The notes: generated by a model not told the origin, from the letters alone. A DNA stretch of 61,425 nucleotides from an uncultured Ruminococcus sp. (GCA_902803805.1 CADCRH010000041.1:1-61425), one strand, 5' to 3'; counted from the stretch's first letter, positions 7,674-35,615 are shown. Translations and numbers: made by a program.

Positions 7674-7674
7674 T

Positions 7675-8348: not shown

Positions 8349-8377
8349 TTGAAATTCTTTTTGATATTTTATATAAT
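8349..8377 (+). promoter_or_regulatory. Sigma-70-type promoter for the AAA/VWA/SWIM operon
   Basis: TTGAAA - 17 nt - TATAAT, about 38 nt upstream of the ATG at 8415. Confidence 0.65.
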
Positions 8378-8414
8378 GATAGTAAATCAAAGACCGAAAA
8401 ACGGAGGAGTTAAA

Positions 8415-13017: not shown

Positions 13018-13029
13018 GGCGGTGATGGA

Positions 13030-15093: not shown

Positions 15094-15094
15094 A

Positions 15095-18000: not shown

Positions 18001-18748
18001 AGCGCTTCTTGCCGACAGAAGATGGACGGTGGAGAACTGGAAAAAGCTGTTTGTCCAAAATCCCGTTATGCACAGTTTTGCAATCGGTTTGATATGGGCA
18101 GCCTATGAAGACGATACATTGGTACAAACATTCAGGTATATGGAGGACGGAACATTCAATACCTCCGAAGAGGACGAGTATGAGCTTTCCGAAAATCTGA
18201 CGATCGGACTTGTTCACCCAATCGATCTTGATAAAGAAGAACTTTCTATTTGGAAAGAGCAGCTTTCCGATTATGAAATCACTCAGCCGATCGAACAGCT
18301 TGACCGTAAAATTTATAGAATCAAAGAGGAAGAAATCGGCAAAATTGACCTTGAACGTTTCAGAGGTCGTTCCATTAACGGAATGTCACTGATGGGCAGG
18401 GCATTAAAATTAGGCTGGTATAAAGGTTCACCGCAGGATGCAGGCTGTTTCTTTGAATTTTATCGTGAAGACATCACTGCCCGTATCAAGAATGATGATG
18501 GAACGGTTACACTTTTAGGCAATGCCGCAGAGCTTCATTTTGAAGGAATGTATATTGCAGGAGATGATTCCGAGGTTCAAATCGAAAATGTTCGTTTCTA
18601 CCAACCGGGAAAAGTTCAGCGCGGAAGCTATGTATATGACGAAGTGAACAATGAAAAGGCGATTTCTCTTGATAAGATCAGTCCCCGTTATTTCAGCGAG
18701 ATGATCAATCAATTGGAAACAATCACCAAAACAGTGGAAAATAACTGA
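15095..18748 (+). CDS. DUF4132 domain protein with HEAT-like repeats (YehI/MolR-like)
   Basis: 1217-aa ORF starting 1 nt after the SWIM stop, behind AAGGAGGA. HEAT-like VRYTVIDVIAKH..VRETAVDILGRWG. The C-terminal RRWTVENWKKLFVQNPVMHSFAIGLIWAAY..FRYMEDGTF..LVHPIDL..W..LSDYEITQPIEQLDR fits the DUF4132 pattern. Confidence 0.8.
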   Translation: MDLMSNSSDTSIQAEIIGIFKDLQVDRKILDIVEEFFDFSKDLNLDLLSFEPQHNLYYQNLSTHKAMTLFRKLSVNNFYKYSDRYILFAEALGVKAMFNTIVDCYGFYKAKNDSLFKKRVLHALERRYGEFYANARLMALSEVSYQSSYQSGTLYFDQYLIFEAKVHPRLVYEAGKILMQDGYCHHLMKDKNDVKSVQKLFALVLAYIKPDGQAALKKNEEPTENDLTETEIKEMTYYILNAAKNVMSITEEMHSLVFLFMSMNHSNEVKEHLKYMVRGKNEHYYTFALSAIMEKTPILYFKKHVKDLADLIEVDASKENAVKAVQAGVYAMWKGNAFTPNSTINEIGSNGQELVIYMIENDPEAFVEVMYSTELFYNGGTGYAPKYYFTLFEDLYKMLATFNPQVIKDFDIDYNRDILKLTVEAEKKFTKVAGDEIAAYLSGEKEITVIEPYIDQIADPKNYLDSGTYHTSKIIDALDSNPKFKARYVALKAIQAKHILLQYARNFYNDKESKYGYVKELIKELIDEKVPIDHRFALYENLYEGLWELEDKNEVEKIVFEAMVEHSEDFDESYRNICLNGTVFERKNYVKYLDATNGDDNKNKDAIVAMCKDASKEVRYTVIDVIAKHKEYEKEVIALLEAKKISVRETAVDILGRWGADHYEEILTAAAEKEKSAKLIDKINDMLAMSSAPTNDGETIFVPTQFIETIHKGGRNKKILWLYETPNPEVHFNNGGKADDKYMQAIMLCYSGMTVFGVSENAELLAKELNTEELCRFAAEIYSKWLSAGAESKKKWVINFAAVHGGSNMIEVILRCIKEWSENMRGAIAAEAVKALAMNGTSQALMSIDNIAHKFKHKQVKNAAVQALDSAAEALGITADELGDRIVPNLGFDENMERIFDYGTRKFKVYLTPSLELEVFDENNKKLKNLPAPGKKDTEDIAKASNAEFKQMKKQMKNVISIQKMRLETALLADRRWTVENWKKLFVQNPVMHSFAIGLIWAAYEDDTLVQTFRYMEDGTFNTSEEDEYELSENLTIGLVHPIDLDKEELSIWKEQLSDYEITQPIEQLDRKIYRIKEEEIGKIDLERFRGRSINGMSLMGRALKLGWYKGSPQDAGCFFEFYREDITARIKNDDGTVTLLGNAAELHFEGMYIAGDDSEVQIENVRFYQPGKVQRGSYVYDEVNNEKAISLDKISPRYFSEMINQLETITKTVENN

Positions 18749-19249: not shown

Positions 19250-20284
19250 ATGAAACTGAAAGTCCTGATATTGGAATCTGATTCTAATTATCTTCAAAGA
19301 ATTTCCTCTCTGCTGAGTACAAAATATAATGATGAACTGGATGTGTATTCTTTTGACGATTACACTAAGGCGCTGAAAAGTGCCAAGGAAAATGAGATAG
19401 ATGTGTTTCTTGCATCGGAAGATTTTGATGTATCAAGAAAAAAAATTCCGGGTAAATGTGCTTTTGCATATCTGGCAGAATCTCCAAATGAAGAAACGAT
19501 AAAAGACCAAAAGGCAATTTTTAAGTTTGTAAAAATCAATGACCTTTATGAAAGCATTAAGAAAGTGTATTCCAAGTATGAATACATTCCTGAACCGGAA
19601 GTGGAAACAAAGACCGTTCTTTTTGTTTCTCCGAGCGGGGGTACAGGCTCATCGACCGCTGCGGCATCGTGTGCTGTTCATTTTGCGGCTGCCGAAAAGC
19701 GTACACTTTATGTCAATCTTGAAAAGCTGACATCTGCCAAAAGCTTTTTTTCCGCCGAAAGCAGCGTGACTGTGAGCGACATTGCTTCACTTGTACAAAA
19801 TAATGATGACGATATTTCCTCACAGCTTGAAGAAGCTGCCGCAGAGGATGAAACAGGTATTTTTGTGATTTCCGCCGGTGAACCGAACGAAATTTTAAAG
19901 TTGAATGTTACCGATTTTGCGGTTGTTATTAACGCTTTGACTGCACTGAAACAATATGAATATATCGTAATAGACGGTGAATTTGATTTAAGTGAAGCCT
20001 CTCTTTCATTTTATCGATTAGCAGATAAGATTGTTTTCACAAGCAGCGGTTCTGAGATCTCCAATGCAAAGCTTTTGACTGCCGTGAAGTATATTTCCGA
20101 CCATCAACCGGAGCTTTCCACTAAAATAGCCGTTCTTTACAGCCGATTTGGTGAAACAAGCACGATTCCGGAATCTGATGACCTTAACAATATCGGCGGA
20201 ATACCGAATTTCGACTTTGCAGATACAAAAGAAATAATGACTCATATATCGGGTATGGGTGTATTTGATATATTGGCAGAATAA
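19250..20284 (+). CDS. TadZ/CpaE-like protein: pseudo-receiver domain plus ParA/MinD-like domain with degenerate Walker A
   Basis: The N-terminal CheY-like fold (KVLILESD..) has Ser where the phospho-acceptor Asp is expected (IDVFLAS). The P-loop position reads SGGTGSST, with both Lys of KGGxGK[ST] replaced. Confidence 0.65.
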   Translation: MKLKVLILESDSNYLQRISSLLSTKYNDELDVYSFDDYTKALKSAKENEIDVFLASEDFDVSRKKIPGKCAFAYLAESPNEETIKDQKAIFKFVKINDLYESIKKVYSKYEYIPEPEVETKTVLFVSPSGGTGSSTAAASCAVHFAAAEKRTLYVNLEKLTSAKSFFSAESSVTVSDIASLVQNNDDDISSQLEEAAAEDETGIFVISAGEPNEILKLNVTDFAVVINALTALKQYEYIVIDGEFDLSEASLSFYRLADKIVFTSSGSEISNAKLLTAVKYISDHQPELSTKIAVLYSRFGETSTIPESDDLNNIGGIPNFDFADTKEIMTHISGMGVFDILAE

Positions 20285-20304
20285 ATGCAGAAGGAGAAAC
20301 AATT

Positions 20305-21921
20305 ATGGTACAGAATTTTTCTTATGAAACACAAGGCAGCGAATCCTACCTTATATATACATTCCAAAATGACACAGCAACAAACTCCCTTATTGTCGGA
20401 ATGATGTCCAATAACAATATTGAAGGTCTTTTACCCTTTAGCTATCACCAGATGGGCTCGGCAAGATATGCACGATATAATATTTCGTCACTCATAAGTC
20501 TGAAAAAACTCTGTGAAGAGCCTGTTAAAAGAAAGATACTTTTAAATATTTTCAGAAGTATTGCGGACGCTTATATCAATTCAGAAGATTATGCGATAGA
20601 CCCACAAAATATTGTGGTTGATACGCAATATCTGTATGTCAATCCTGAAAATGGAAATGCCTTTATGATTTGTGTTCCGTGCAACACTGTTCAAAACAAT
20701 CCTGACATCAAGACTCTTTATAAAGATATTATGATGACAGCTGTTTTTGACCGTACTGAAAATTGCAGCTATATCGGTCAGATCGAACTTTATTTAAGCA
20801 GTGATTCCTTCAATCCGTCCGATTTCAAGAAATTTATTAATGAGATCGATATAGAGGAGCCACCTGCTCCGATTGAACCAGTGGTATCGGAGGAACCCGT
20901 ACCACAGCCGGAACAGGAAATATTTTTAAATGTTCCCGAAAACAATAATACACAAAATGAGATTTCCTCACAGTTGCCGGCACAGCCCGAATTGAATACA
21001 TACAATCAGCCACAGCAATATCAAACAGACAATGCCGCTTATCAGCCGCAAAACCCGTCTTATGGTTATGAGCAGCAGTATCAGCAGAATGACAGTGTTT
21101 ATCAGTCACGATACCAAAATAATAACGAATATAATCAGTATCAGCCACAATACCCGACTGATAATAACAGCTATTATCAGCAGCAGTACTCTCAGGAAAA
21201 CAGTGAGGATCATTACCAACAACAATATCAAACAGACAATAACAGTTATTATCAGCAGCAGTATTCTGTTGATAATAATGCAAATTCCTATCAACAGCCA
21301 TATCAGACCAATAACAGTTATAACTATCAACAGCAATATCAAAACAATAATGATTATACCGGTTATCAGCAATATGCCACGGATAGTAGCGCAAGTGCAT
21401 ATCAGCAGCAGTACCCCACAGATAATAACACAAACACATATCAACAACAATACTCCGCAGATAATCATACAAATAACTATTCTCAGCCATATGCAGCAGA
21501 AAACAACAGTTATGCTCAGCAAGTTGTTCAACCGAGTGTTGACCCGTATGGTGAAACGACTGTATTGGGCGCTTCCGGCTATAACGAAACGACTGTTCTC
21601 GGCGGTTCTTCCTATGAAAATATGCCTGCCGCTTACCTCATCAGACATAAAAACGGCGAAAGAGTCCTTGTCAACAAAGACGTTTTCCATATTGGCAAAG
21701 AAAAAAGTATTGCTGACTACTTTATCAGCGACAACTCCGCGATCAGCAGAAAACACGCTGAGATTGTCAAAAGAAACAATGAATATTACATCATAGACAC
21801 CAATTCAACCAATCACATTTATGTTAACGGCATAAGAATACCGTGCAATGTTGAAACACACATCATATCGGGAACGGAAATTATACTTGCCGATGAAAGA
21901 TTTGATTTTGTGATTATGTGA
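20305..21921 (+). CDS. FHA domain protein with DUF6382-like N-terminus and a Q/N/Y-rich linker
   Basis: C-terminal FHA (FHIGKEKSIADYFISDNSAISRKHAEIV..YYIIDTNSTNHIYVNG). N-terminal 180 aa resemble the FHA-associated Firmicute domain I recall as DUF6382. RBS AAGGAGAA. Confidence 0.8.
   Translation: MVQNFSYETQGSESYLIYTFQNDTATNSLIVGMMSNNNIEGLLPFSYHQMGSARYARYNISSLISLKKLCEEPVKRKILLNIFRSIADAYINSEDYAIDPQNIVVDTQYLYVNPENGNAFMICVPCNTVQNNPDIKTLYKDIMMTAVFDRTENCSYIGQIELYLSSDSFNPSDFKKFINEIDIEEPPAPIEPVVSEEPVPQPEQEIFLNVPENNNTQNEISSQLPAQPELNTYNQPQQYQTDNAAYQPQNPSYGYEQQYQQNDSVYQSRYQNNNEYNQYQPQYPTDNNSYYQQQYSQENSEDHYQQQYQTDNNSYYQQQYSVDNNANSYQQPYQTNNSYNYQQQYQNNNDYTGYQQYATDSSASAYQQQYPTDNNTNTYQQQYSADNHTNNYSQPYAAENNSYAQQVVQPSVDPYGETTVLGASGYNETTVLGGSSYENMPAAYLIRHKNGERVLVNKDVFHIGKEKSIADYFISDNSAISRKHAEIVKRNNEYYIIDTNSTNHIYVNGIRIPCNVETHIISGTEIILADERFDFVIM
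20980..21522 (+). repeat. Low-complexity Q/N/Y-rich degenerate repeats inside the FHA gene
   Basis: About 180 codons of reiterated units such as YQQQY, TDNNSYYQQQY and NNxYQ. All three other ORF-track hits here are composition artefacts. Confidence 0.9.
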
Positions 21922-21952
21922 CCATCACAGTTTCTATGAGAGGGAATCGTTT

Positions 21953-22720
21953 ATGAATTTTATTGTTTCAGCCGATACCGATGTCGGCATCAAGAAAAAG
22001 ACAAATCAGGACAGTTTGAGCGTTAAAGTAGTCAACACGCCTATGGGAAGAATGGCATTTGCGGTGCTTTGCGACGGAATGGGCGGACTTGAAAAGGGCG
22101 AAGTTGCCAGCGCAACGGCAATCAAAGCTTTCAGTAGTTGGGTCACCGAGGTACTGCCTGCACTAAGCAGTACACCGATCACTGCCGACAGCATACGTCT
22201 TGGCTGGCAGAATATCGTCACCGAAACAAACGAAAAAATCAAGCTTTACGGAAAAAGAAACGGTATCAACCTCGGTACAACAGCAGTCATTATGCTGCTG
22301 ACGCAAACCGATTATTATATTATGAATGTGGGAGATTCACGTGCATATGAGATCTTTACCGAAACGCAGCAGCTTACCAATGACCAGACATTCGTGGCGA
22401 GGGAAATAGCGCTCGGAAGAATGACTCCTCAGCAGGCACGTGTTGATAAAAGACGAAACATTCTTTTACAGTGCATCGGTGCTTCAGAAAAGGTGTATCC
22501 CGACTTTTTCACGGGGACATTAAAGAAAGATGCGGTTTATATGCTTTGCTCGGATGGCTTTCGCCACGAGATCACACCGCAGGAAATATTTGACAGACTT
22601 CGCCCCGACAGAATGACAAGCCGAGAACTTATGTCAAAAAATACGGTCGAACTGATCGAACTTAACAAGCAGCGCAGGGAAACAGACAATATTTCCGCAG
22701 CACTTGTAAGGACATATTAA
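21953..22720 (+). CDS. PP2C-family Ser/Thr phosphatase
   Basis: DTDVGIKKKTNQDS, LCDGMGG, NVGDSRAY and CSDGF motifs. Confidence 0.9.
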   Translation: MNFIVSADTDVGIKKKTNQDSLSVKVVNTPMGRMAFAVLCDGMGGLEKGEVASATAIKAFSSWVTEVLPALSSTPITADSIRLGWQNIVTETNEKIKLYGKRNGINLGTTAVIMLLTQTDYYIMNVGDSRAYEIFTETQQLTNDQTFVAREIALGRMTPQQARVDKRRNILLQCIGASEKVYPDFFTGTLKKDAVYMLCSDGFRHEITPQEIFDRLRPDRMTSRELMSKNTVELIELNKQRRETDNISAALVRTY

Positions 22721-22745
22721 AATTTAGGATTTTGAGGTATGAACT

Positions 22746-24521
22746 ATGCTTGAAATAGGCTCACTTGTTGACGGTAAATATAAAATACTTAATAAAGTCG
22801 GTCAGGGCGGTATGAGTGTTGTTTATCTTGCTATGAACGAAAAGGCAAATAAGCAATGGGCAATCAAAGAGGTACGAAAAGACGGCATCAAGGATTTTGA
22901 AGTGGTCAAGCAGGGACTGATCGTTGAAACCGATATGCTGAAAAAATTAAGTCATCCGAACCTGCCGAGTATTATTGACGTAATAGAAAATGATGATACT
23001 TTTCTGATCGTAATGGACTATATTCAAGGTAATCCTCTGAATAAAACACTGGAAGAATACGGCGCTCAGCCGCAGGAATATGTCATCGAATGGGCAAAAC
23101 AGCTTTGCGATGTTCTCGGTTATCTTCACTCACGCAAGCCTCCTATTATTTACCGTGATATGAAACCTGCCAATATTATGCTGAAACCTGACGGAAACGT
23201 AACACTAATCGATTTTGGTACGGCACGTGAATATAAAGAAAAAAATATTGCCGATACCACCTGTCTTGGTACTGTCGGCTATGCTGCTCCGGAGCAGTTC
23301 GGAGGAATGGGACAGACTGACGCACGAACCGATATATATTGTCTTGGTGCAACACTGTACCACCTTGTAACGGGAATGAACCCTTGTGAACCGCCGTATG
23401 AAATAAAGCCCATCAGACAAATCAATCCTTCCTTGTCCAACGGTCTTGAAAAAATCATTCTCAAATGTACACAGCGCGACCCCAACGACAGGTATCAATC
23501 CTGTGCGGAGCTTATGTATGCATTGGAGCATTACGACGAAATAGATGAAAAGTACCGAAAAAAAGCGTGGAAAAGAGTAACCATTTTTTCGGTCAGTGTT
23601 TTATTGATGATCGCCTTTTTGGGAACATCAATATGGAGCGATATAGCTGCTGTTTCACAAAGAAGTGAAGATTACGATTACAAACTTTCAAAAGCAAAAA
23701 CCTTGCAGGATTATAAAAGCGTCATTTTGATAGATCCGACAAGAGAGGACGCTTATCTGAAACTTGTCGAATACTGTAAAGACAACGACGGACAAATTAC
23801 AGATGACGAAATAGAATGTTTTAATGAGATCGATATTGGTATTAACGACAAAAGTAATATCAACGGCAGCGTCAAGGTTCTTGATGAGCTGAAAGAATCC
23901 AATCCAAAGGGCTATTTTGAAGTATGTTATTCTATCGGCTTTGAAATAATTTCGTTGAAACAGTCCAATTCAATTGATAGTGTTTTAAGTGACTCTGTGC
24001 AGTGGTTCAGCAAAGCAAATGAGGTCTTTAAAGAAACGCAAGATCAAAAAGAATTAAAGATGGATGATTTGAATGCCAAAAATGAATTGGCAGAGCTGTT
24101 TTGTTCTGTCAATAATTGCTTGACCGTCATTGCCCAGAACAATAACTCAAGACTTTCCAGTGCAGAGGACAGAGAAAAAGTATATCACGATCTTTTTGAT
24201 ACTATCGGTCAGATTAAGGATAAAATCAAAAACAGTAAAAGTTTTACCGATCATAATAGTACGACCGATGCTGCCAGTGTCCAGATTCTTGTCATCAATA
24301 TTTTGACAGATCTGATCAATAAGGAAACGGAAGGTTTCCAAAATATCACCTTAGAGAGAAACGGTAATTCGATAGAATTATCTGATATTTTAGACCTGTT
24401 AAAAGATATGAAACAGATGATTAAAGAAGCGAGAGATATTTCTCAGTTAAAAAGTACAGTTGATGAGTACGGCGTTGACACAAAATTGGATGATCTTATC
24501 AAGAAATTTGAAAGCAATTAA
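22746..24521 (+). CDS. Hanks-type Ser/Thr protein kinase, single TM, non-PASTA extracellular domain
   Basis: GQGGMSVVY, WAIKEV, IIYRDMKPANIM, IDFGTA and GYAAPEQ. TM segment VTIFSVSVLLMIAFLGTSIW, followed by about 290 aa that are largely helical in appearance and have no PASTA repeats. Confidence 0.9.
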   Translation: MLEIGSLVDGKYKILNKVGQGGMSVVYLAMNEKANKQWAIKEVRKDGIKDFEVVKQGLIVETDMLKKLSHPNLPSIIDVIENDDTFLIVMDYIQGNPLNKTLEEYGAQPQEYVIEWAKQLCDVLGYLHSRKPPIIYRDMKPANIMLKPDGNVTLIDFGTAREYKEKNIADTTCLGTVGYAAPEQFGGMGQTDARTDIYCLGATLYHLVTGMNPCEPPYEIKPIRQINPSLSNGLEKIILKCTQRDPNDRYQSCAELMYALEHYDEIDEKYRKKAWKRVTIFSVSVLLMIAFLGTSIWSDIAAVSQRSEDYDYKLSKAKTLQDYKSVILIDPTREDAYLKLVEYCKDNDGQITDDEIECFNEIDIGINDKSNINGSVKVLDELKESNPKGYFEVCYSIGFEIISLKQSNSIDSVLSDSVQWFSKANEVFKETQDQKELKMDDLNAKNELAELFCSVNNCLTVIAQNNNSRLSSAEDREKVYHDLFDTIGQIKDKIKNSKSFTDHNSTTDAASVQILVINILTDLINKETEGFQNITLERNGNSIELSDILDLLKDMKQMIKEARDISQLKSTVDEYGVDTKLDDLIKKFESN

Positions 24522-24535
24522 AGGAGGGAAAGACA

Positions 24536-25114
24536 ATGACATACGAAACATATCAATTGATCCATACGCTTTCGCTGATAATGGCAGGAGTGATGCTTGT
24601 TGTTTCTGTTATTTTGTTCTTTTTTCTTCACATACCGAAATCTTTCGGTGTCATAACGGGATTTTCCGCCAAAAAGGCGATCAAGTCCATTAACAGCCGT
24701 ACAGAACAGTCGGCAAGTGAACGACTTGTCAGCGGCAAGGGCAAAAAAGCAGGAAAAAAATATGCGGATGATCTTTATACCCCGTCGGGAAGAATACAGC
24801 CAAAAACAGTGATTTCCCTTGACGAAAATGTGCCTGTCACCAGTAAGATCGCCACCGATCAGATTGCAAAAACGGCAGCCAATTCTACGACCGTGCTCTC
24901 CGGCAGTGAAACAACTGTACTGGACACCGATCCGACAGCCAACATTAATGCTACCACACTGCTTCCGCAGCCGCCATTTGACAGTTCCACGACCGTGCTG
25001 TCCGGTAATGAAACAACTGTGCTTCAGCAGCCCCCGACAGGCACGGCAGCGGTACAAAGCAAATTTGTTATTGAGGTCGATATTACCTTTATCCATACAA
25101 ATGAGATTATTTAA
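24536..25114 (+). CDS. Small single-pass membrane protein with repeated (S/E)TTVL motifs
   Basis: RBS AAGGAGGG 8 nt upstream. N-terminal TM LSLIMAGVMLVVSVILFFF. Four TTVL motifs plus one ATTLL variant in aa 117-163. A mirror ORF of equal length on the minus strand was rejected. Confidence 0.7.
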   Translation: MTYETYQLIHTLSLIMAGVMLVVSVILFFFLHIPKSFGVITGFSAKKAIKSINSRTEQSASERLVSGKGKKAGKKYADDLYTPSGRIQPKTVISLDENVPVTSKIATDQIAKTAANSTTVLSGSETTVLDTDPTANINATTLLPQPPFDSSTTVLSGNETTVLQQPPTGTAAVQSKFVIEVDITFIHTNEII

Positions 25115-25129
25115 AGGAGATGAACAGGT

Positions 25130-25630
25130 TTGAAGGAAAGTAAAAATATGTCAAATCTTCTCCGTATATCAATTGCGGGATTTCTTTTGATGTCATTAAC
25201 ATTCTTGCTGATGCCCCTGAACAGTACCGCCCCGGAAGAAGGAACCGACATTTTCAGAATCATTGTCGGAGTATTGTTTTGGTTGTTTCTGATCATCGGT
25301 ATTGCGGCACAAATAATGCTTTCAAAAGAATTTAAAAAATCGGAAAAGAAAAAAGCAAAAAGGAGAATAGGGCTTTTTTCTTTTCTGCAAAACCGTGAAG
25401 CCGCAGTTTTTGATTTGCTTTGTTTGATCGGCTTTATCGCAATTGCTTTTATGGTGCTTTTTACCGACGGAACAATGTACTTTGCATATATATGCACAAG
25501 TGTGTTTGTTTTTTCTTTCTGTATGCATTGTATTTTAAACGGGAAAATTTACAATACCTTAAAAAGAAAACCAAACGCAAAGAAAAAATCCGAGAAGGAG
25601 GAGAAAAATAATGATAAGATTAAAGCTTAA
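25130..25630 (+). CDS. Polytopic membrane protein with Lys-rich tail
   Basis: About four hydrophobic helices and a KKKSEKEEKNNDKIKA tail. TTG start at 25130 after AAAGGAG, with an alternative ATG at 25148. Operon context. Confidence 0.6.
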   Translation: MKESKNMSNLLRISIAGFLLMSLTFLLMPLNSTAPEEGTDIFRIIVGVLFWLFLIIGIAAQIMLSKEFKKSEKKKAKRRIGLFSFLQNREAAVFDLLCLIGFIAIAFMVLFTDGTMYFAYICTSVFVFSFCMHCILNGKIYNTLKRKPNAKKKSEKEEKNNDKIKA

Positions 25631-28600
25631 TCTTTCTGATAGGCTTATCTCGCTGCTGCTTGCATTGCTTATCTTTTTTGCAAGCATAACGATTGTGCTT
25701 ACCGTCAACAGTGATACAAGTGCATTAGAGGACGAGAACAGTACACCGTCATATTCGCTTGAAATTCATTACAAGGATTCCAAGGGAGAAAGCCATCTTG
25801 CAGGAGAAGGTGCAGTTGTCACCTACAGGATCACCCGTTATCCTAAAGACGGAAATGTTCTGGCTGCCAACAGAACAGCCAAAACAGACGAAAACGGTAA
25901 AGTGCAGCTGGGAATCAGAACAGATATTGAAGAAGAACCCGATACCGTATATATTATGGTGAAATCTGTTTCCTATTACGGCTATACATTTAACAGATCC
26001 GACGAATATTTTGAATTAAATAAAGGCATTCCGCTTGCTATTCAGCTTACCTCTCAAAGTCAGGTGAATTTGCTTGGTGTGATCACGGGCGCTGATGGTA
26101 AACCTGTAAGCGGTGCAAAAATCAAAGTCAGTCACTCGACGGCTCCGGCAGGAAGCAAGACAGTTGCAGCGTCGGACGATGGTACCTTCAAAACACCGGT
26201 TTATATCAATCAAAACTATGACCTGACCATCGCCGCAAACGGTTATCAGACAAAGACAGTCAGTGGCATATTTGCGTCTAAGGATGAATCAGCAGATAAA
26301 ATATATCAGCTTTCCGAGCCGATACGGTTGGAAGAAAAACTCACAGATGAGAATATTGGCTTTCAAATTTCCGAAGAAACCGTTGAATATATTGACAAAG
26401 ACAATCATTCTTTCTTTAATAACGAACTGTTAAAAAGCGCCGATAATGACGGTAAAGTGACTTATACTGTGACACTTAACGGAGCCAAAACATCTGCGGT
26501 ATATGAAGACAATACCCTTGATTTTTCGGATTTCGGTCCCGGAAAATATATTGTAACAGCGAATATCAAAGGAGCATCAAAGTATTTTGATGCAAAAACC
26601 TCATTTACCTTGAATGTTGTTGACACAAACTTCAAATTCAATTCCGAAGTAGTAACAGCAGAAATGACTGATGGAGAAATAGAGATTCAAGAAATTTTCG
26701 GAAATTACGACAAAAATCTCATTACCTATACTTTGAGCGATAAAAAGGGAACCATTGCCGAGCTGAATCAGGATACAAAAATCATATCCTTTAAAAAATA
26801 CGGTTCGGTAACGGTGACAGCATATTACAACGAAGAAAAATTTAAAGAAAATTCAAAGTTATATCAAAGCATTGCGGCTTCATATGAATTGCAAATCGTT
26901 CATCAGCCGACAAAGATCGCATTTAAGAAATCAAATGTACAGGTAAGATACGGCGCTGACGATAATCAATATACCCAAAGTGTAAAAACAAATGATGACA
27001 ACCTGACAGCAAAAGAGAAAAAAGAAATTCTGTCAAAAATCAGATATTCTGTCAGCGAACAAACCGATTCTTCCGGTAATCCCGTTACCGACAGAAATAT
27101 TGTTGAGGTAGATCGGGAAACCGGTTTGGTAAAGATCAATGAAGCAGGTAAAGTTACAATTTCCGCTGCCATCGAAGACAGTGACAATTTTTCTGCCGAT
27201 ACGGTGGACTATGAGCTGAATATATTAAAAGCAAATCAAGATACCGATCAGCACGAAAATATTTATTTTGAGAATACAAAAGAGAAAGCTCAGGATACCG
27301 TTACTTTCAGCAGTGAAACGTCAACGCTTACATATACCAATCATCTGATTGACAACAGCGGAATAGACGGTACCGTAACATATGAAATTACCGCAGGCTC
27401 AGACCTTGCTTCCATCAACAGCAAAACAGGTACCCTTACTATCAATAAAGCAGGTACCATAACGGTCAGAGCAATCAAAACAGCGAAAGAAAGCAATAAC
27501 TATACCAACAGTATCAGAACCTATCGACTGATTGTTGAAAAGGGCATTCCGGATTTTCAATATGAATTATCCGAAGAAAATATTTACTACGGAAAGAATG
27601 TCATAGCAACACAAAAGCCGACACTTTCCACAAAAATGAAAAAGGACGAAAAACCGGAGATCACCTACACCGTTGCCAACCTCAGCAACAGTCCTGTTCA
27701 TCATATTAACAGCAGCAACGGCAATGTTCAGTTAAACAACAAAGAACCGATCGGCAGTTTTGAGGTAACGGCAACACTTGCCGAAACTGATAAATATGCA
27801 TCAATCAGTATTTCCTATATTATCAATATTTCATATGCCAAAGAAGAAGAATACACCGTAACCGAAACACAGTACGATCAGTGGTATAACACTGCAAACG
27901 GTGTTACCTTTACAGCAAATGACGGCTACAGTATCAGTGCAAATAATTCTTTTGCAGAGAATAATTGGAAGAAAACAGAGTACAAATATACAACAGCAAA
28001 CAAAAATCAGGATGTTGTATTTTATCTCAGAAACAATGAAACGAAGGCAATTTCGGAGATAACGGCAAGCAACATCAATATTGACTATACCGTTCCGACA
28101 GAGCTTGAAATCAATTATTCCGAAACTTCAAAATCATTTTTGCAGGAGATAGGAGATCGTATTTTCTTCGGACTTTTCGGTTCATCGGAAAATGAGATCA
28201 AAGTGACGGTCAAGGCTCACGACAATATCGCGGAAATCATTGAATTCAGATATTATTATCAAGCTGATGAATCTGCAAATGGTATATATGGCAGTACATC
28301 CGGCGGAGACACCATTACCGAGAAGGATATTAAAAATATCGGCGATGGTTATTATGAAGCCGAATTCACGATTCCTGCGGAATTCAAAGGAAAAATCGGC
28401 TTTACCGCTAAAAATGCCGCAGGTCTTGAATCGGAAAAGGAATTTGATAAAACTATTATCGTTGACAAAACCGCTCCGAAAACGGAAATTACCTTTAATG
28501 CAGAACCTTCAAACGAGAATAAAAGCAACGGTGCCAAGTATTTCAACAATGATTCCGTAGAAGTTCAGTTCAAGGTTACAGAACCCAATTTCAGTCACAG

Positions 28601-31600
28601 CGAAGAAGAAACAGCCGTAATCATTAATGATAAGCTTCAAAAGGATATTCAATGGACTCGTCAGCCCGACAGCAATGATTATATTGCTAAAAAGGAGCTT
28701 GTAGCAGGTCAGGAATACCGTATTCAGCTTTCTTCTCAGGATATTGGCGGTCAGCAGTCTGACGAATCGACCGTTAATGAAACAATTGTGATTGACAATA
28801 TAGCGCCATCCGATCAAAATATGTCTATCAGATACAGTAAAGCAACCACATTCTGGGAAAATATCCTCGGAACTGTATTCTATTGGGGCTATCAGGGAAG
28901 TGTCACTGTCACCTTTGAAGCAGCGGATGATCTTTCGGGTATCGATCATATTGATTGGACATATACAAGACAAGATAACAGCAAGGATGAAGACGCTTAT
29001 ATCAGTGACAGAAACGCTGAGAATATGAGTGGTACCGTAAAAATTTCCGAGGACGGAAAAACCGCATCCATTACTTTGAAAGACGATTACTACCGCGGCA
29101 GTTTTTCCTTTACCGCAACGGATATTGCAGGAAACAAAAGCAATCCTAAAAAGGACGACGGTACCGTTATTGTTGTCGATCAAATCGCACCGGAAAGTAC
29201 GGTTACCTTTGAAAATGTGGAACAAACCGCAGATGATATTCTTTACTACAAGAAAGACGCAGAGATAACAGTAAATGTTGAGGAAGTCAACTTCTATCCC
29301 GATGATATAACATTAAAATTACATCATCTTGAAAATTCTGATGAAGATACTGTTATTTCCGACCTGAAATGGAATCAAGAAACCGACAGCAATGACCATT
29401 TTGTAACATCATTCAAAGTAGAGAAAGACGGTAAATATCAGATCATAATGACTGCCAAAGATCATATTGATAATGTAAATGATCATATTACCGTAGAAAC
29501 CAAGGATACGGTCGGTAAAAAAACAGATACGATCACAGCAGAAGCAGAAACCGATCCGGAGTCGGGAGAAACATACTATACTTCTCCGATATTTGTGATC
29601 GATACCAAAGCGCCTGTTGTTACCGTGAAACATTCAACGAATAATATTAAAAATAAATATGACGACATTGAATATTTTGCGACTAAAAAAGAATTCACCA
29701 TCGAAATTGACGAGCATAATTTCAGACCCGATCTTGTTACGATCAAGGTCAATGCAACGGATGTATCCAGAAAAACAGTTAAGCTTTCGGACGATTTTAC
29801 ATCCGCTTTAAAGAATGATAAGCTGTGGGAGCATAACGGTGATATTCATACCGCCACCATCACTTTCTCTGATGATGCGAAATATCAATTTACTGTTGAC
29901 TGCAACGATCTTTCAAAGAATGAAGCACATACTTGCCAATCCAATGCATTTGTGATCGACAAAACAGCTCCGTCAACAAAGGGAATGACTGTTTCTTACA
30001 GTAAAGAGCTTAATTTCTGGGAGAAAATTGTAGATGGTATTACCTTTGGATATTATGCATATCAAAAAAGTGTTACCGTTACTTTGACTGCCAACGATAG
30101 TACTTCAGGCATTGACTATATCAAATGGACTTATACTAAAGAAAGCGGTGCAAGCTCCCAAAATTTGAAAAGCCAATCGAATACTATCAAAGTAACAAAC
30201 AGTAATCTTTCCTCTGACGGAAAAACCGCAACAGTGAAGTTTACACTGAACGACAATCAGTACCGAGGAAATATTTCCTTTACTGCCATTGATAAATCAG
30301 GCAACAGCAGCGAGGTAAAGTCCGATGATCATCATATCATTATTGTTGACAGTGTAGCTCCGATTCTTGATTATGTAGAACTCAGTGCGGCAAACCGTGT
30401 GGTAAATGCATCAACATTGAAAGATGTCACAGGCTATGATTACAAAACAAGAAAATTGGGTTACAAGCTGTATTACAGCGGTACTGCGACTGCAAAAATT
30501 TCCATTACCGAAGCAAACTTCTATTCCGAAGATGTAAAGGTAGAACTTGAAAGGACATATAACCAAAAAACTTCCAAAATCAATGCTTCCGTCAAGTGGA
30601 CAAACAACGGTAAAGACAATTATATCGGAACATTTTCCATATCGGATGAGGGCGAATATATTGCTAACATAAGCTATACAGATCGTTCTACCAATGAAAT
30701 GGTAAGCTATACTTCCAATGAGATCATCATTGATAAAACGAATCCGAAAATCAATGTTTCCTACTCACCAAATAATGTCATCAGAACGGTCAAAGAAAGA
30801 AAATATTATAATAAGGAACAAACAGCAACCGTAACCGTCAGCGAGCACAACTTCCGTGCAGACGATATTGAAGTAAAGGTAACGGGTGTTGATGTTGCGA
30901 ATAAGTCCGTCATTGATGAAACCTATTACACATCCTACTTTAAGAACAGAAGCAAATGGACAAAAAACGGAGATACCTATACTGCAACTATCACTTATTC
31001 AACCGATGCTAACTATACCTTTGATATTTCCTACAAAGATCTTGCCAATCGCAGTGCCGGAACATATCAGCAGGATAAGTTTACAGTTGATACAACCCCT
31101 CCGGAAAAATTGGAAATCAGCTACAGCCCAAGCGTGCTTGACAGAATTATTGAAACTATCACATTCAAATTCTATCAGGCTCCCGTAACCGTTACCGTAT
31201 CGGCTTATGATTCTACAACGCCTGTCAATGAATTTGATACAAGCGGCTTGAATCTAAATGATACAATTCGTCAGAGTCTTTCCGGTGCAAAAATCAGCCG
31301 AAGCGGTTATAAAAATACAGCAACCTTCCAAATTCCGCAAAGTGCTCTGACAGAAGCAACGCAGTTCAACGGAACAATAAGATTCACGGCATACGATACT
31401 TCCAACAACAAAACCGAACGTAGCGATAACAAACGAATTGTTGTTGATAACATTTCGCCAAGAGCAGAGATAAGCTATAATGCTCCCGTAAACACAGTCG
31501 GTTCTGTTTGGTATTACAGCGGAAATGTCAATGCATCGGTATCTATTACCGAAGCGAATTTCTACTCCGAAGATGTCAGAATTGAACTGGAAAGAACCCA

Positions 31601-34007
31601 TAACGGAAATACTGCCGTTGTGATTCCTTCCGTAAACTGGAAAAATGATGGAAACGATAGGCATACAGGAACGTTCTCCATATTGGATGAGGGCGAATAT
31701 ATTGTCAGGATCAACTATACCGACCGTTCATCCAATTCAATGGCAGGTTATACTTCCAATGAAATTGTAGTAGATCATACAGATCCGGTAATCAATGTTG
31801 CTTACTCGCCAAACAATCCATCCAATACTGTTAACGGATACAAGTATTACAATGAAGTACAGACAGCAACCATCACTATCACAGAGCATAACTTCCGTGC
31901 CAATGAAGTGATTGCAGAGGTAAAAGGTGTCGATGTTACAGGTAAATCTGTTGTTGATGGAAATAATTATCAATCACATCTGAACAACAGCAACAGTTGG
32001 ACGAAAAATGGAGATACCTATACGGCAAAGATAACCTATTCTGCCGATGCAAACTACACTTTCAGTATTTCCTATAAAGATCTTGCCAACCGCAGTGCTG
32101 CACCTTATTCCAATGACAAGTTTACAGTTGACAAAACACCACCAAAGGATTTGAAGATCAAATACAGTCAAAGTGTGATTGACAAAGTGATCGGAACCAT
32201 TACATTCGGATTCTATAAAGCACCTGTAGCGGTCACAATATCGGCATCCGATGATACCACACCAATCAGTAAATTTGATACAAGTGGTTTAAGCAAGATC
32301 GACTCCAAGGCAATCACCAAAGCACTTTCCGGTAACAACATACAAAGAAACAGTTATGAAAATACTGCAACTTTCCAGATTCCGCAGGAAGCTTTGACAG
32401 CAGCAACGCAATTTAACGGTACCATAAGCTTTACAGCATATGATACCTCAAACAACAAAACCGATCTTAACGATACAAAAAGAGTTGTAGTTGACAATAT
32501 CGCTCCGACTGTTGAAGTAAGCTATAATGAACCTGTCAAAACTGTTAACGGAACCGCCTATTACAGCGGTACGGTGAATGCAGCGGTATCGATTGCCGAA
32601 GCAAATTTCTATTCGGAAGATGTAAAGGTAGTACTTACAAGAAAGAATGACTCATCAACTAATCCTTCCGTCAATTGGACAGATGGTGTCGGAAATCAAC
32701 ATACAGGCACATTTTCTATTGCCGATGAGGGAGAGTATATCATAAACGTCAGCTATACTGACCGTTCCGGCAACGAAATGACCAATTATGAATCAAATAC
32801 GATCATTGTTGACAAGACCTCTCCGACGCTTACAGTAAGCAATATCAAACATCACAGTGCAACAAGCAGTGAAACATTCGGATTTACTGTTAAATCCACT
32901 GACGAGCATTTTGATAAAAATTCCTTTAAGGCAACCCTTACCGCTCTTGTAAGAAATAATTCGGGTGAAATGCAAACGAAAAATATTGACCTGAGCAAAT
33001 ACCTCAAAAAAGAAAGCGATACGTCTTATTCGTATGTCATTGACAATCTTACGGATAACGCTGTTTATACACTTTCCTGCTCCTCCAAAGACTTGGCGGG
33101 CAACAGTATCGACAAAATGAAGCTTTCTGATAATAAGACATATGACAAAACCGAATTTTCAATCAACCGAAACGGTTCAACTTTCTCTGTTAACAATAAT
33201 ACCGAAAAACTGATTGAGAATCGTATTGTATATAGTGTCAATGAGGATATTGTGATTCAGGAGGTCAACGTTACACCTATTGAGTCATACAGTATAAAGC
33301 TCAATGACAAAGAACTGAAAGAGGGTCAGGATTTCACAGCAGAGATCAAAAACAGTGATACGGAATGGTGCAGTGTTACATACACAATTGACAAATCACT
33401 GTTTGAAAATGAAGCTGACTATTCTATTAAAATTGATACTACCGACAAAGCCGGTTCGACTTCATATAATGATAAAAAGTCCTCAACGATCAACTTTACA
33501 GTTGATAAAAGCAAACCGACAATTACCGTTAGCGGTATTGAGGACGGAGGACGCTATCAGGTAGGCGAACAAAAGGTAACAGCCATTGTTAAGGATAACA
33601 GCGGCATTAAGAGTCTGAAAATTACAGTTCTTGATTCGTCAGGCAATCCGATATTGGATTCTTCCGGTAAAAATATCAGTGTCAGATTTGACCATTCCGG
33701 AGATGCTCTTAATGATTATTTGGATAGTAACGGCAGGGACATCAAAGTAGCCTTCACTGTTCCGGAAGGACTTGACAGCCAAGTAGTTATTGAGTGTTGT
33801 GACAACGCTGTAGGCACAGACGGAAAACCAAACCAAACCATCAAAACCATTACAGGAATTACCGTATCACAGAATAACTGGATTATTTTCTATGCAAACA
33901 AGCCGTTGTTCTATGGCTGTCTTATCGGCGGACTGGCAATTTTGATTGCACTTGCCTTTACCATTGCCATTATTGTAAGAAAGAAAAGAGCAAAGAGCGA
34001 ATCATAG
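25611..34007 (+). CDS. Giant (2798 aa) cell-surface Ig-like repeat protein, N-terminal signal/anchor and C-terminal TM tail, no LPXTG
   Basis: RBS GAAGGAGGAG. N-terminal hydrophobic LISLLLALLIFFASITIVL. A CarboxypepD_reg-like segment (GVITGADGKPVSGAKIKV..). More than 15 domain boundaries of the form VVDxxAP. C-terminal LIGGLAILIALAFTIAIIVRKKRAK. Confidence 0.9.
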   Translation: MIRLKLNLSDRLISLLLALLIFFASITIVLTVNSDTSALEDENSTPSYSLEIHYKDSKGESHLAGEGAVVTYRITRYPKDGNVLAANRTAKTDENGKVQLGIRTDIEEEPDTVYIMVKSVSYYGYTFNRSDEYFELNKGIPLAIQLTSQSQVNLLGVITGADGKPVSGAKIKVSHSTAPAGSKTVAASDDGTFKTPVYINQNYDLTIAANGYQTKTVSGIFASKDESADKIYQLSEPIRLEEKLTDENIGFQISEETVEYIDKDNHSFFNNELLKSADNDGKVTYTVTLNGAKTSAVYEDNTLDFSDFGPGKYIVTANIKGASKYFDAKTSFTLNVVDTNFKFNSEVVTAEMTDGEIEIQEIFGNYDKNLITYTLSDKKGTIAELNQDTKIISFKKYGSVTVTAYYNEEKFKENSKLYQSIAASYELQIVHQPTKIAFKKSNVQVRYGADDNQYTQSVKTNDDNLTAKEKKEILSKIRYSVSEQTDSSGNPVTDRNIVEVDRETGLVKINEAGKVTISAAIEDSDNFSADTVDYELNILKANQDTDQHENIYFENTKEKAQDTVTFSSETSTLTYTNHLIDNSGIDGTVTYEITAGSDLASINSKTGTLTINKAGTITVRAIKTAKESNNYTNSIRTYRLIVEKGIPDFQYELSEENIYYGKNVIATQKPTLSTKMKKDEKPEITYTVANLSNSPVHHINSSNGNVQLNNKEPIGSFEVTATLAETDKYASISISYIINISYAKEEEYTVTETQYDQWYNTANGVTFTANDGYSISANNSFAENNWKKTEYKYTTANKNQDVVFYLRNNETKAISEITASNINIDYTVPTELEINYSETSKSFLQEIGDRIFFGLFGSSENEIKVTVKAHDNIAEIIEFRYYYQADESANGIYGSTSGGDTITEKDIKNIGDGYYEAEFTIPAEFKGKIGFTAKNAAGLESEKEFDKTIIVDKTAPKTEITFNAEPSNENKSNGAKYFNNDSVEVQFKVTEPNFSHSEEETAVIINDKLQKDIQWTRQPDSNDYIAKKELVAGQEYRIQLSSQDIGGQQSDESTVNETIVIDNIAPSDQNMSIRYSKATTFWENILGTVFYWGYQGSVTVTFEAADDLSGIDHIDWTYTRQDNSKDEDAYISDRNAENMSGTVKISEDGKTASITLKDDYYRGSFSFTATDIAGNKSNPKKDDGTVIVVDQIAPESTVTFENVEQTADDILYYKKDAEITVNVEEVNFYPDDITLKLHHLENSDEDTVISDLKWNQETDSNDHFVTSFKVEKDGKYQIIMTAKDHIDNVNDHITVETKDTVGKKTDTITAEAETDPESGETYYTSPIFVIDTKAPVVTVKHSTNNIKNKYDDIEYFATKKEFTIEIDEHNFRPDLVTIKVNATDVSRKTVKLSDDFTSALKNDKLWEHNGDIHTATITFSDDAKYQFTVDCNDLSKNEAHTCQSNAFVIDKTAPSTKGMTVSYSKELNFWEKIVDGITFGYYAYQKSVTVTLTANDSTSGIDYIKWTYTKESGASSQNLKSQSNTIKVTNSNLSSDGKTATVKFTLNDNQYRGNISFTAIDKSGNSSEVKSDDHHIIIVDSVAPILDYVELSAANRVVNASTLKDVTGYDYKTRKLGYKLYYSGTATAKISITEANFYSEDVKVELERTYNQKTSKINASVKWTNNGKDNYIGTFSISDEGEYIANISYTDRSTNEMVSYTSNEIIIDKTNPKINVSYSPNNVIRTVKERKYYNKEQTATVTVSEHNFRADDIEVKVTGVDVANKSVIDETYYTSYFKNRSKWTKNGDTYTATITYSTDANYTFDISYKDLANRSAGTYQQDKFTVDTTPPEKLEISYSPSVLDRIIETITFKFYQAPVTVTVSAYDSTTPVNEFDTSGLNLNDTIRQSLSGAKISRSGYKNTATFQIPQSALTEATQFNGTIRFTAYDTSNNKTERSDNKRIVVDNISPRAEISYNAPVNTVGSVWYYSGNVNASVSITEANFYSEDVRIELERTHNGNTAVVIPSVNWKNDGNDRHTGTFSILDEGEYIVRINYTDRSSNSMAGYTSNEIVVDHTDPVINVAYSPNNPSNTVNGYKYYNEVQTATITITEHNFRANEVIAEVKGVDVTGKSVVDGNNYQSHLNNSNSWTKNGDTYTAKITYSADANYTFSISYKDLANRSAAPYSNDKFTVDKTPPKDLKIKYSQSVIDKVIGTITFGFYKAPVAVTISASDDTTPISKFDTSGLSKIDSKAITKALSGNNIQRNSYENTATFQIPQEALTAATQFNGTISFTAYDTSNNKTDLNDTKRVVVDNIAPTVEVSYNEPVKTVNGTAYYSGTVNAAVSIAEANFYSEDVKVVLTRKNDSSTNPSVNWTDGVGNQHTGTFSIADEGEYIINVSYTDRSGNEMTNYESNTIIVDKTSPTLTVSNIKHHSATSSETFGFTVKSTDEHFDKNSFKATLTALVRNNSGEMQTKNIDLSKYLKKESDTSYSYVIDNLTDNAVYTLSCSSKDLAGNSIDKMKLSDNKTYDKTEFSINRNGSTFSVNNNTEKLIENRIVYSVNEDIVIQEVNVTPIESYSIKLNDKELKEGQDFTAEIKNSDTEWCSVTYTIDKSLFENEADYSIKIDTTDKAGSTSYNDKKSSTINFTVDKSKPTITVSGIEDGGRYQVGEQKVTAIVKDNSGIKSLKITVLDSSGNPILDSSGKNISVRFDHSGDALNDYLDSNGRDIKVAFTVPEGLDSQVVIECCDNAVGTDGKPNQTIKTITGITVSQNNWIIFYANKPLFYGCLIGGLAILIALAFTIAIIVRKKRAKSES
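30345..31442 (+). repeat. Tandem coding repeat unit 1 (about 1.1 kb, three Ig-like modules)
   Basis: Runs from VDSVAP to the next VDNISP boundary. It aligns by eye over its whole length with unit 2 (for example ITEANFYSEDV, YTDRS.N.M..YTSNEI, SEHNFRA, WTKNGDTYTA.ITYS.DANYTF.ISYKDLANRSA). Confidence 0.9.
31443..32489 (+). repeat. Tandem coding repeat unit 2
   Basis: Second copy of the same three-module unit (VDNISP to VDNIAP). Confidence 0.9.
32490..32807 (+). repeat. Tandem coding repeat, partial unit 3
   Basis: First module only (VDNIAPTVEVSYNEP..AEANFYSEDVKV..YTDRSGNEM..VDKTSP). Confidence 0.85.
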
Positions 34008-35237: not shown

Positions 35238-35615
35238 ATGAACGAAAATAATCAAAATATACGTTTTCTTTCAGCGATTTCATATATTGCTGTATTTTTT
35301 GTAATCGGACACTTTGCCGTTGAACGAAACAACCCCGATTTGCGTTTTCACAAATATCAGGGCGGCGTTCTCTTTTGTATTTTTGCCTTGCTGTATATGA
35401 TGAATGCCTTATTATCCTTTCTTCTTTCCTTTATTCCTCCGCTTCAGATAATATTATGCTTTCTCATATACCTTGCTTTGACGGTTGCCTATCTTTTTTT
35501 GGTTGTTCTCGGTATTAGGTCAGCACTGAAATTTCAGCAAACAATTCTTCCGTTTGTCGGAAATATTGCTGTCTCCCTCAGAACAAAGGTTGATGAATCT
35601 ATCAGCCGCAGGTAA
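35238..35615 (+). CDS. Small integral membrane protein
   Basis: 125 aa with three hydrophobic helices. RBS GGGGAG upstream. Confidence 0.6.
   Translation: MNENNQNIRFLSAISYIAVFFVIGHFAVERNNPDLRFHKYQGGVLFCIFALLYMMNALLSFLLSFIPPLQIILCFLIYLALTVAYLFLVVLGIRSALKFQQTILPFVGNIAVSLRTKVDESISRR

Follow-up and report, generated by a model that had tools for sequence, protein, structure and literature searches.

Here, we describe a five-residue threonine motif, ETTVL, in a 61,425-nt stretch of DNA from an uncultured Ruminococcus sp. (GCA_902803805.1, CADCRH010000041.1:1-61425), hereafter the window. The motif is found twice in a 538-amino acid (aa) protein with an N-terminal DUF6382 and a C-terminal forkhead-associated (FHA) domain, and five times, counting close variants, in a 192-aa single-pass membrane protein encoded downstream. 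The two genes bracket those of a PP2C/PPM phosphatase and a Hanks-type Ser/Thr kinase. Judged from sequence, the motif is most likely a previously unnoticed phosphothreonine (pThr) docking site of a module attached to Tad pilus and/or type VII secretion system (T7SS) clusters. We consider it probable that ETTVL is a pThr ligand of the operon's own FHA domain, written by the kinase and erased by the PP2C phosphatase, and used both as a multivalent dock on the membrane protein and as a self-ligand on the FHA protein.

A sequence-only reading of this DNA had reported GETTVLG and NETTVLG in the FHA protein (21550-21603) and five TTVL-type copies in the membrane protein (24884-25024), and translation confirmed the coordinates of all of them. 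The membrane protein, which had been placed two genes downstream of the FHA protein, is in fact encoded by the third gene, with the PP2C and kinase genes in between. The two near-identical repeats of about 39 nt noticed in its gene are a direct repeat of 42 nt (24880-24921 and 24982-25023), 86% identical and 102 nt apart. To estimate how often such motifs arise by chance, we used the window's own amino acid composition (18,913 residues in the 45 open reading frames (ORFs) taken as genes). By this estimate, the 192-aa protein should contain the pattern TT[VILM]L 0.015 times and the 538-aa FHA protein 0.04 times; the observed counts are five and two, respectively. Across all 45 ORFs it is expected 1.45 times and observed eight times, seven of them in these two proteins, and ETTVL itself is expected 0.026 times. 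The sole further ETTVL in the window lies in a DUF5682 protein (9488-11902, residues 324-328) and may be due to chance.

The same concentration is seen in relatives. One genome per species was scanned with two peptide patterns from the FHA core, neither of which includes the motif, and the best 80 of 417 confirmed loci, from Lachnospiraceae, Oscillospiraceae, Acutalibacteraceae, Ruminococcus, and Clostridium, were analyzed using our own ORF calling and phmmer/hidden Markov model (HMM) searches. Within these 80 loci, members of the 192-aa family account for 88 occurrences of ETT[VI]L and FHA homologs for 116, with a single one in all other ORFs (∼426,000 residues). Counted per 1000 aa, TT[VILM]L reaches a density of 13.1 for the 192-aa family and 3.4 for FHA proteins, compared with 0.04 across 742 other ORFs, with zero for PP2C and 0.009 for the giant protein encoded at the end of the module; over the two samples counted, the 192-aa family has 13-16 per 1000 aa. 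We regard it as close to certain that the motif is a functional element under selection.

Conservation of the motif in orthologs, whose absence the sequence-only reading had listed as grounds for rejecting its proposal, is extensive in both families. The FHA protein has 111 homologs at E <= 1e-5, all with the DUF6382-FHA architecture except three trypsin-FHA proteins (P0107, P0109, and P0110) and one with an FHA domain only (P0101). The pattern [GN][ED]TT[VI]L is present in 106 of the 111, mostly twice, with 9-14 residues (mode 11) from first Thr to first Thr. The last motif Thr precedes the IGK loop by 29-40 residues (mode 35) in 100 of these 106 homologs; the other six gave a spacing of 11, which is probably a pattern match inside the FHA domain. 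This spacing is held although protein length ranges from ∼330 to 760 aa, and the motif is kept among proteins just 25-40% identical overall. In the alignment of the FHA proteins (A1), T418 is near-invariant, and so are T429, V431, and L432. Among FHA ORFs of the loci found with the motif-free patterns, 73 of 78 carry the motif. As for the 192-aa family, all 171 sampled members have at least one copy (TT[VILM]L or [EDQ]T..L), the number ranging from 1 to 10. The strict form TT[VILM]L is found in 159 of the 171, most commonly three times and at most eight times. The family is large: an exhaustive profile search of 1.84 billion representatives yielded 3650 clusters with E <= 1e-3, of which 2441 had E <= 1e-10, whereas a word-based search with the 192-aa protein gave 26 hits only. 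Neither Pfam nor NCBIfam includes a model for it, and no source names it.

Which residues of the motif are constrained was assessed by counting substitutions with a pattern anchored on neither Thr. In the 192-aa family, [ED]-T-T-[VIL]-L was counted 391 times. The second Thr is replaced 137 times (by Ser in 63 cases, Ala in 27, Val in 15, Glu in 12, and others), the first Thr only three times and never by Ser, Val, or Ile (Ser at this position, 0), and the Leu at +3 in three of 394. The FHA family shows the same asymmetry, with counts of 180, 27, and 5. It follows from this asymmetry that the core of the motif is E-T-x-[V/L/I]-L, in which the Thr, not replaceable by Ser, and the Leu at +3 are both essential; these two residues had been singled out from the window alone. 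FHA domains discriminate pThr from phosphoserine and select mainly at the +3 position. The substitution profile is therefore the expected footprint of a pT-x-x-L ligand of an FHA domain, as far as can be read from sequence.

The FHA protein comprises DUF6382 (residues 7-147), a disordered linker (186-440), and the FHA fold (441-538; nt 21625..21918). Its AlphaFold2 model, built with a 77-sequence alignment and without phosphate, has a predicted local distance difference test (pLDDT) score above 90 for residues 1-185 and 441-538, reaching 97-98 in the FHA domain, and below 57 in the linker from about residue 200. Both motifs lie in the disordered linker, where the surrounding pLDDT is 42-56. 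The second motif Thr is 14 residues ahead of strand beta1, which starts at 443, and 35 ahead of Gly464 in the IGK loop. The motif had been described as about 10 residues N-terminal of the FHA domain; this is right for the fold, in which beta1 (443-447) begins 10 residues after L432, and the Pfam match begins only later, at residue 462 (ending at 526). We also considered the motif as strand beta1 of the FHA domain itself and ruled this out, given that it belongs to a low-confidence disordered segment and that beta1 lies further on. Upstream of the motifs, residues ∼186-415 (nt 20860-21550) are of extreme Gln/Asn/Tyr-rich low complexity ('YQQQYQ...DNN..Y'), a prion-like composition encoded by degenerate tandem repeats of 36-75 nt. 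The linkers of homologs are Pro/Ala/Gln-rich instead and differ in length by hundreds of residues.

The FHA domain resembles known pThr readers. It belongs to Pfam FHA (PF00498) with a score of 49.4 bits against a cut-off of 20.7, and the model has the beta-sandwich fold of the family. The closest solved FHA domains are GarA (Rv1827) and OdhI by sequence, and EmbR, GarA, OdhI, DgcB, and FhaA by fold as assessed by Foldseek, with root mean square deviations of 1.1-1.6 Å to EmbR, GarA, and OdhI. All five of these nearest solved relatives are pThr-binding FHA domains. A Foldseek search with the full-length model gave FHA matches only, and none for DUF6382. The predicted pThr-binding residues are G464, K465, S481, R482, H484, and N503; G464, S481, and N503 are invariant in alignment A1, and R482 and H484 are found in at least 90% of sequences.

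The motif occurs outside the DUF6382-FHA architecture as well. Proteins in which a trypsin domain and a transmembrane (TM) segment precede the FHA domain, without DUF6382, have GETTVL-x5-GETTVL just ahead of it. A search with the FHA core (residues 438-538) returned 10 short proteins only; short stand-alone FHA proteins with enough upstream sequence also have GETTVL, or GETVVL in P0288. In the VWA-TM-FHA neighbor in locus L083, PTVML and HTMFL precede the FHA domain. A published alignment of T7SS proteins contains the same arrangement: TseJ reads 'SGTTVLGVEDVGTTVLADVYEPRFPYLVREK', with GTTVL twice before its FHA domain, and TsfJ has 'SYETELLDS', i.e. ETELL, at the same position (Fig. S4 of PMC11217815). 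To judge from sequence, the motif travels with the FHA domain rather than with DUF6382. Conversely, the FHA proteins of two loci (L039 and L040, ∼9962-11605) have no motif and read 'VGHSH' for 'ISRSH', replacing the phosphate-binding Ser and Arg (S481 to Gly and R482 to His), and neither locus encodes a 192-aa homolog. Together with L034 and L052, these loci form a Tad-linked minority with longer kinases (659-1029 aa) and no 192-aa homolog. L039 and L040 look, by sequence, like a variant that left the pThr circuit.

In the AlphaFold2 prediction for the 192-aa protein, a TM helix (residues 2-30) is followed by two juxtamembrane helices, which run to residue 67; the remainder (68-192) is a disordered tail and contains all five motif copies. 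Over the 171 family members, the Lys + Arg count is 0.71 in the N-terminal flank and 2.80 after the TM helix, and because of this bias (positive-inside rule) the tail is predicted to be cytoplasmic. The tail would therefore share its compartment with the kinase domain, the PP2C phosphatase, and the FHA protein. Two other segments of the family are conserved in alignment A2. The juxtamembrane consensus 'IPKVIGDLTG.TA.KAIENIR.QNE..G.K.Y..S.VN..RGKLTDKISPSGRL' (24536-24740 in the window) is strongly conserved and corresponds to AlphaFold2 helices, and the C-terminal 'F.IEYEIT.IHTNEII' (25064-25111) is modeled with low confidence; in the window's protein the conserved C terminus reads FVIEVDITFIHTNEII. 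Both segments presumably bind other partners.

The module consists of seven co-oriented and tightly packed ORFs on the + strand (19250-34007), annotated using Pfam (Table 1).

Table 1. Genes of the module and copies of the motif in the window
Feature	Position	Strand	Basis
TadZ-like ATPase (atypical receiver domain and AAA_31 P-loop), first gene of the module	19250..20284	+	Pfam TadZ-like_ARD (E 4.6e-33), AAA_31
DUF6382-FHA protein (TseJ-like), 538 aa	20305..21921	+	Pfam DUF6382 (E 2.5e-21), FHA (E 6.3e-13)
Motif copy 1 of the FHA protein, G416-E-T418-T-V-L-G422 (proposed acceptor T418; L421 at +3)	21550..21570	+	sequence
Motif copy 2 of the FHA protein, N427-E-T429-T-V-L-G433	21583..21603	+	sequence
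PP2C/PPM Ser/Thr phosphatase, proposed eraser	21953..22720	+	Pfam PP2C_2
Hanks-type Ser/Thr kinase, proposed writer (kinase domain 12-251)	22746..24521	+	Pfam Pkinase (E 3.2e-50)
192-aa single-pass membrane protein, proposed multivalent docking platform	24536..25114	+	AlphaFold2, positive-inside rule
Motif copy of the 192-aa protein, S-T118-T-V-L	24884-24898	+	sequence
Motif copy of the 192-aa protein, E-T126-T-V-L	24908-24922	+	sequence
Motif copy of the 192-aa protein, A-T140-T-L-L	24950-24964	+	sequence
Motif copy of the 192-aa protein, S-T152-T-V-L	24986-25000	+	sequence
Motif copy of the 192-aa protein, E-T160-T-V-L	25010-25024	+	sequence
166-aa polytopic membrane protein, conserved downstream partner	25130..25630	+	same-position homolog in 33/80 loci
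2798-aa surface protein (TseI-like), Ig-like or CarboxypepD_reg domains	25611..34007	+	Pfam CarboxypepD_reg, Big_3_3

The kinase displays the catalytic motifs AIK, YRDMKPAN, DFG, and APE, and a hydrophobic stretch near residues 277-297 reads as one TM helix, with ∼290 residues beyond. The phosphatase matches the Stp1/IreP-type NCBIfam model (E 7.9e-48), under the family cut-off. The 166-aa protein has no significant Pfam or NCBIfam family. The 2798-aa protein has, from its hydrophobic segments, an N-terminal signal or anchor and a C-terminal TM helix, and a homolog at the same position in 54 of 80 loci. Its gene start overlaps the end of the 166-aa gene by 20 nt (25611-25630), which suggests translational coupling inside the operon. 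An antisense ORF (24518-25096, − strand, 192 aa) that is a near-exact mirror of the membrane protein gene was rejected as an artefact, since the + strand protein has thousands of homologs; comparable antisense ORFs took the place of the true gene in crude gene calls for L023, L031, and L058.

This gene order is widely shared. A PP2C gene is present in 75 and a kinase gene in 72 of the 80 loci, and the order FHA, PP2C, kinase, 192-aa, (166-aa), giant protein is found in nearly all. As assessed with the family HMM, a 192-aa homolog directly follows the kinase in 63 of the 72 kinase-bearing loci; five of the nine exceptions are truncated contigs, so that, among complete loci, the order FHA, PP2C, kinase, 192-aa holds in 63 of 67. 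The adjacency of TadZ-like and FHA genes is repeated in L002, L048, L053, L069, and L075. One further locus, L001 (RUG291, a rumen metagenome-assembled genome (MAG) of an uncultured Clostridiales bacterium), is 100% identical to the window across its 2.2 kb.

Under our preferred reading, the membrane-bound Hanks kinase would phosphorylate the first Thr of every copy, the FHA domain would bind pT-x-x-L via its Ser-Arg-x-His, Asn, and Gly-Lys loops, and the PP2C phosphatase would strip the phosphate. The 192-aa protein would be a membrane-anchored multivalent docking strip, with five sites here, which upon phosphorylation would bring several cytoplasmic DUF6382-FHA copies to the membrane, close to the giant surface protein and, in the majority of relatives, a Tad machine. 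The two copies in the FHA protein, on a short tether of conserved length, would be self-ligands acting in cis, as a GarA/OdhI-like autoinhibition that competes with the membrane sites, and/or in trans, by head-to-tail oligomerization comparable to the tail-FHA contact of DgcB. By our own estimate, the 14- and 25-residue tethers could reach the binding loops, and such cis/trans competition is plausible. We also entertain, tentatively and as a rather unlikely extension, a phospho-regulated multivalent clustering device in which the tandem sites (five here, up to 10 in relatives), the self-sites with the single FHA domain, and the prion-like linker would form a membrane network or condensate, triggered by the kinase and reversed by the phosphatase. 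If so, this network might nucleate or gate assembly of a Tad pilus in most Clostridia, a T7SS in others or, here, the giant adhesin-like protein, and would represent a general but so far unrecognized principle underlying the genes termed "accessory" in T7SSd/e/j and in Clostridial Tad loci.

Several observations weigh against a phospho-dependent FHA ligand. In 90% or more of the subfamily, Lys (K465) takes the place of the canonical Arg of the Gly-Arg loop, a conservative change, and the trypsin-FHA relatives P0107 and P0109 keep the Arg. AlphaFold2 left the motif undocked on the FHA domain, which says little because the run lacked phosphate. The joint loss of the motif and phosphate-binding residues is seen in two loci, which are perhaps related to each other. 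The motif columns themselves could slightly aid profile-based detection of the 192-aa family; matches do cover the whole 192-aa profile, and synteny picks the same genes independently. Finally, neither Tad machinery nor a T7SS ATPase was found among the scanned ORFs of the window, and hence no controlled machine is visible here.

The alternative that survives best, although we consider it unlikely, is that the kinase or phosphatase uses the motif as a substrate or docking site, without its being read by the FHA domain. Phosphorylated tails would then alter charge, stability, or binding of another partner, and the FHA domain would bind the kinase activation loop or another protein. The conserved position of the motif beside a kinase and a PP2C phosphatase fits this equally well, and the activation loop of the kinase holds ADTTCLGT. 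Moreover, Gram-positive Hanks kinases often favor acidic residues before the Thr and a hydrophobic residue at +3. Against this, the motif is tethered at a conserved short distance from the FHA domain in three architectures (DUF6382, trypsin-TM, and short stand-alone proteins), and in L039 and L040 it is lost along with the phosphate-binding Ser. The first Thr is also never Ser, and so strict a requirement for Thr is more typical of FHA recognition than of kinases.

Quite unlikely, in our view, is a phosphorylation-independent, strand-forming peptide that binds a partner such as DUF6382, the TadZ-like ATPase, or the kinase's own domains through strand addition or hydrophobic contact. T-T-V-L is rich in beta-branched residues and strand-prone, DUF6382 is always present in the main family and has no known function, and K465 replaces the canonical Arg. 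Against this, the motif persists in FHA proteins that lack DUF6382, the kinase and phosphatase are nearly always co-encoded, and the phosphate-binding residues of the FHA domain are conserved. The far stronger constraint on the first Thr than on the second, with Ser, Val, and Ile all excluded, is hard to explain by a pure strand.

The sequence-only reading had proposed a GarA/OdhI-like phospho-switch. As a mechanistic analogy, this is supported by GarA and OdhI being the closest solved FHA domains: they share with the protein described here a disordered E-T-T motif upstream of a single FHA domain, Ser-Arg-x-His and Asn as phosphate-binding residues, a Hanks kinase as the plausible writer and, as an idea, a self-ligand that competes with other partners. 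Family membership does not hold. OdhI is the best NCBIfam match, but the protein reaches 32.9 bits with its model (NF041660), for which the cut-off is 200, and the match covers the FHA core only. Whereas GarA and OdhI are ∼140-160 aa long, with ETTS followed by the FHA domain, the present protein has 538 aa with a folded DUF6382 and a 255-residue linker. Its motif is E-T-T-V-L, occurs twice, and lies 35 residues from the GK loop rather than the ∼60 residues that separate motif and loop in GarA. GarA and OdhI act on the tricarboxylic acid cycle and bind their partners, metabolic enzymes, independently of phosphate, whereas the proposed partner here is a phospho-motif of a membrane protein, and the neighboring genes are envelope/signaling genes with no hint of metabolism. 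With the motif repeated on that membrane protein in a Tad/T7SS-type context, a true GarA/OdhI homolog, regulating 2-oxoglutarate dehydrogenase and glutamate enzymes and switched off when its ETTS-like motif is phosphorylated, is highly improbable. There is next to no chance that the motif is a functionless coincidence of composition or by-product of recent duplication, even though the 42-nt duplication gave rise to two of the 192-aa protein's five copies and the FHA linker is of low complexity, when ETT[VI]L is found 204 times in two families vs once in all other residues of the 80 loci, is conserved at 25-40% overall identity, and is missing from none of the sampled 192-aa family members.

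In the ORF maps of the 80 loci, the module directly follows Tad/Flp-like gene sets. Pfam confirmed a Tad/Flp cluster in both loci scanned (L008 and L021), with genes for a T2SSE ATPase, T2SSF platform proteins, Flp pilin, Peptidase_A24, a WG-repeat protein, TadE-like proteins, and DUF5702. The scanned ORFs of the window contain the TadZ-like gene only, and no TadA/CpaF, TadB, TadC, Flp pilin, prepilin peptidase, or TadE; the closest relatives, L002 and L048, likewise have only a TadZ-like gene before the FHA gene. No EssC/TseC FtsK-type ATPase, WXG100 protein, or YukD-like TseB was found in ∼27 scanned window ORFs or in the 18.7-19.3 kb gap (the Pfam scans left aside the ORFs at 124-4531, 4725-5441, 7582-8211, 35238-35615, 40453-40884, 47256-51915, and 56353-58581, each judged far too short for an EssC), and we therefore ruled out that the window encodes a complete T7SSe. 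P0111, a distant relative of the FHA protein, has genes for WXG100, YukD, and a 1513-aa FtsK_SpoIIIE ATPase beside its own. A T7SS-type locus of this kind in a Lachnospiraceae MAG (L081, 6352-14542, and L082) has genes for WXG100, a DUF6382-FHA protein with ETTIL and GTTLL, an AAA_31 TadZ-like protein, YukD, and the 1513-aa FtsK_SpoIIIE ATPase, as well as a second DUF6382-like FHA protein without the motif. No kinase, PP2C, or 192-aa homolog was found within the 18 kb of L081 examined. Because the module is linked to Tad genes in most relatives and to T7SS genes in others, it looks like a portable phospho-signaling unit that attaches to different envelope machines.

The remainder of the window shows no evident link to the FHA module. 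Directly upstream (8346-18748), five genes encode a MoxR-like AAA_5 ATPase, DUF5682, VWA_CoxE, a SWIM zinc-finger protein, and a DUF4132/HEAT protein, a conserved-looking and seemingly unrelated system. Downstream of the module are housekeeping and cell wall genes, including a typical teichoic acid or capsule synthesis cluster (52119-61326) with GT2 glycosyltransferases, two CDP-glycerol glycerophosphotransferase-family proteins, and a Stealth CR1/CR2 protein, which is unrelated to the motif.

Kinase-phosphatase-FHA triads beside envelope machines are known, as in T6SS, and have been proposed for the new T7SS subtypes. To our knowledge, nobody has named what their FHA domains read in Gram-positive systems. 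The candidate ligand named here is five residues long, has a Leu three positions after its predicted acceptor Thr, and is carried by two defined proteins. It is spread over at least hundreds of species of gut/rumen Clostridia (417 loci and ∼3650 representatives of the partner family), and the presence of the same cassette on Tad pili and T7SS bears on how commensals control adhesion and contact-dependent secretion. Our literature search found no description of an ETTVL motif with FHA domains or of the 192-aa family, and the sole paper found that mentions DUF6382 speculates on phospho-regulation in general terms. An FHA link to Tad systems has been made for class III CpaF (PMC12019362), and one has been reported for Bdellovibrio too, in neither case with a ligand named.

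In the threonine phosphorylation pathway of the type VI secretion system (T6SS; PpkA, PppA, and Fha1), genes for a Hanks kinase in the membrane, a PP2C phosphatase, and an FHA protein likewise accompany an envelope machine, a likeness of mechanism only. In Agrobacterium, the FHA protein binds a membrane component (TssL) once the kinase has phosphorylated it (summarized in PMC11217815). The proteins are, however, unrelated save for shared domains, the host here is Gram-positive, and Pfam scans of the window found none of the T6SS core genes (TssA-M, Hcp, and VgrG). In addition, the target here would be a small dedicated protein on which 1-10 sites stand in tandem, and the FHA protein bears the same motif. 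Self-recognition has a precedent in Bdellovibrio DgcB (PDB 6hc1), in which the FHA domain is bound to its own phosphorylated N-terminal tail. Multivalency has one in Mycobacterium tuberculosis Rv1747, whose FHA domains and multi-pThr linker show that a membrane protein can be clustered through multivalent pThr-FHA contacts. Both differ from the present system in their outputs (a diguanylate cyclase and an ABC transporter, respectively), have no ETTVL, and are unrelated outside the FHA domain.

The module also resembles the accessory set of T7SSe (TseJ, TseF, TseD, TseH/TseK, TseI, and TsfV; PMC11217815), which has the same parts list. Indeed, the module encodes a TseJ-type protein with DUF6382 at its N terminus and FHA at its C terminus, and counterparts of the TseD kinase, the TseF phosphatase, TseH/TseK, and the giant Ig-like protein TseI, and its TadZ ATPase is TsfV-like; the 192-aa protein resembles TseH/TseK by architecture alone, i.e. 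a single-pass protein with an unstructured cytoplasmic stretch. It differs in that the EssC-type ATPase, WXG100, and YukD are absent from the scanned window ORFs, and in that most relatives are Tad-linked. The T7SSe paper speculates on phospho-regulation, without mention of the motif and without naming a ligand (Garrett and Palmer 2024, PMC11217815). What is already known is the kinase-phosphatase-FHA triad on an envelope machine, and what is new is the ligand motif, the multi-site membrane protein family, and the linkage to Tad.

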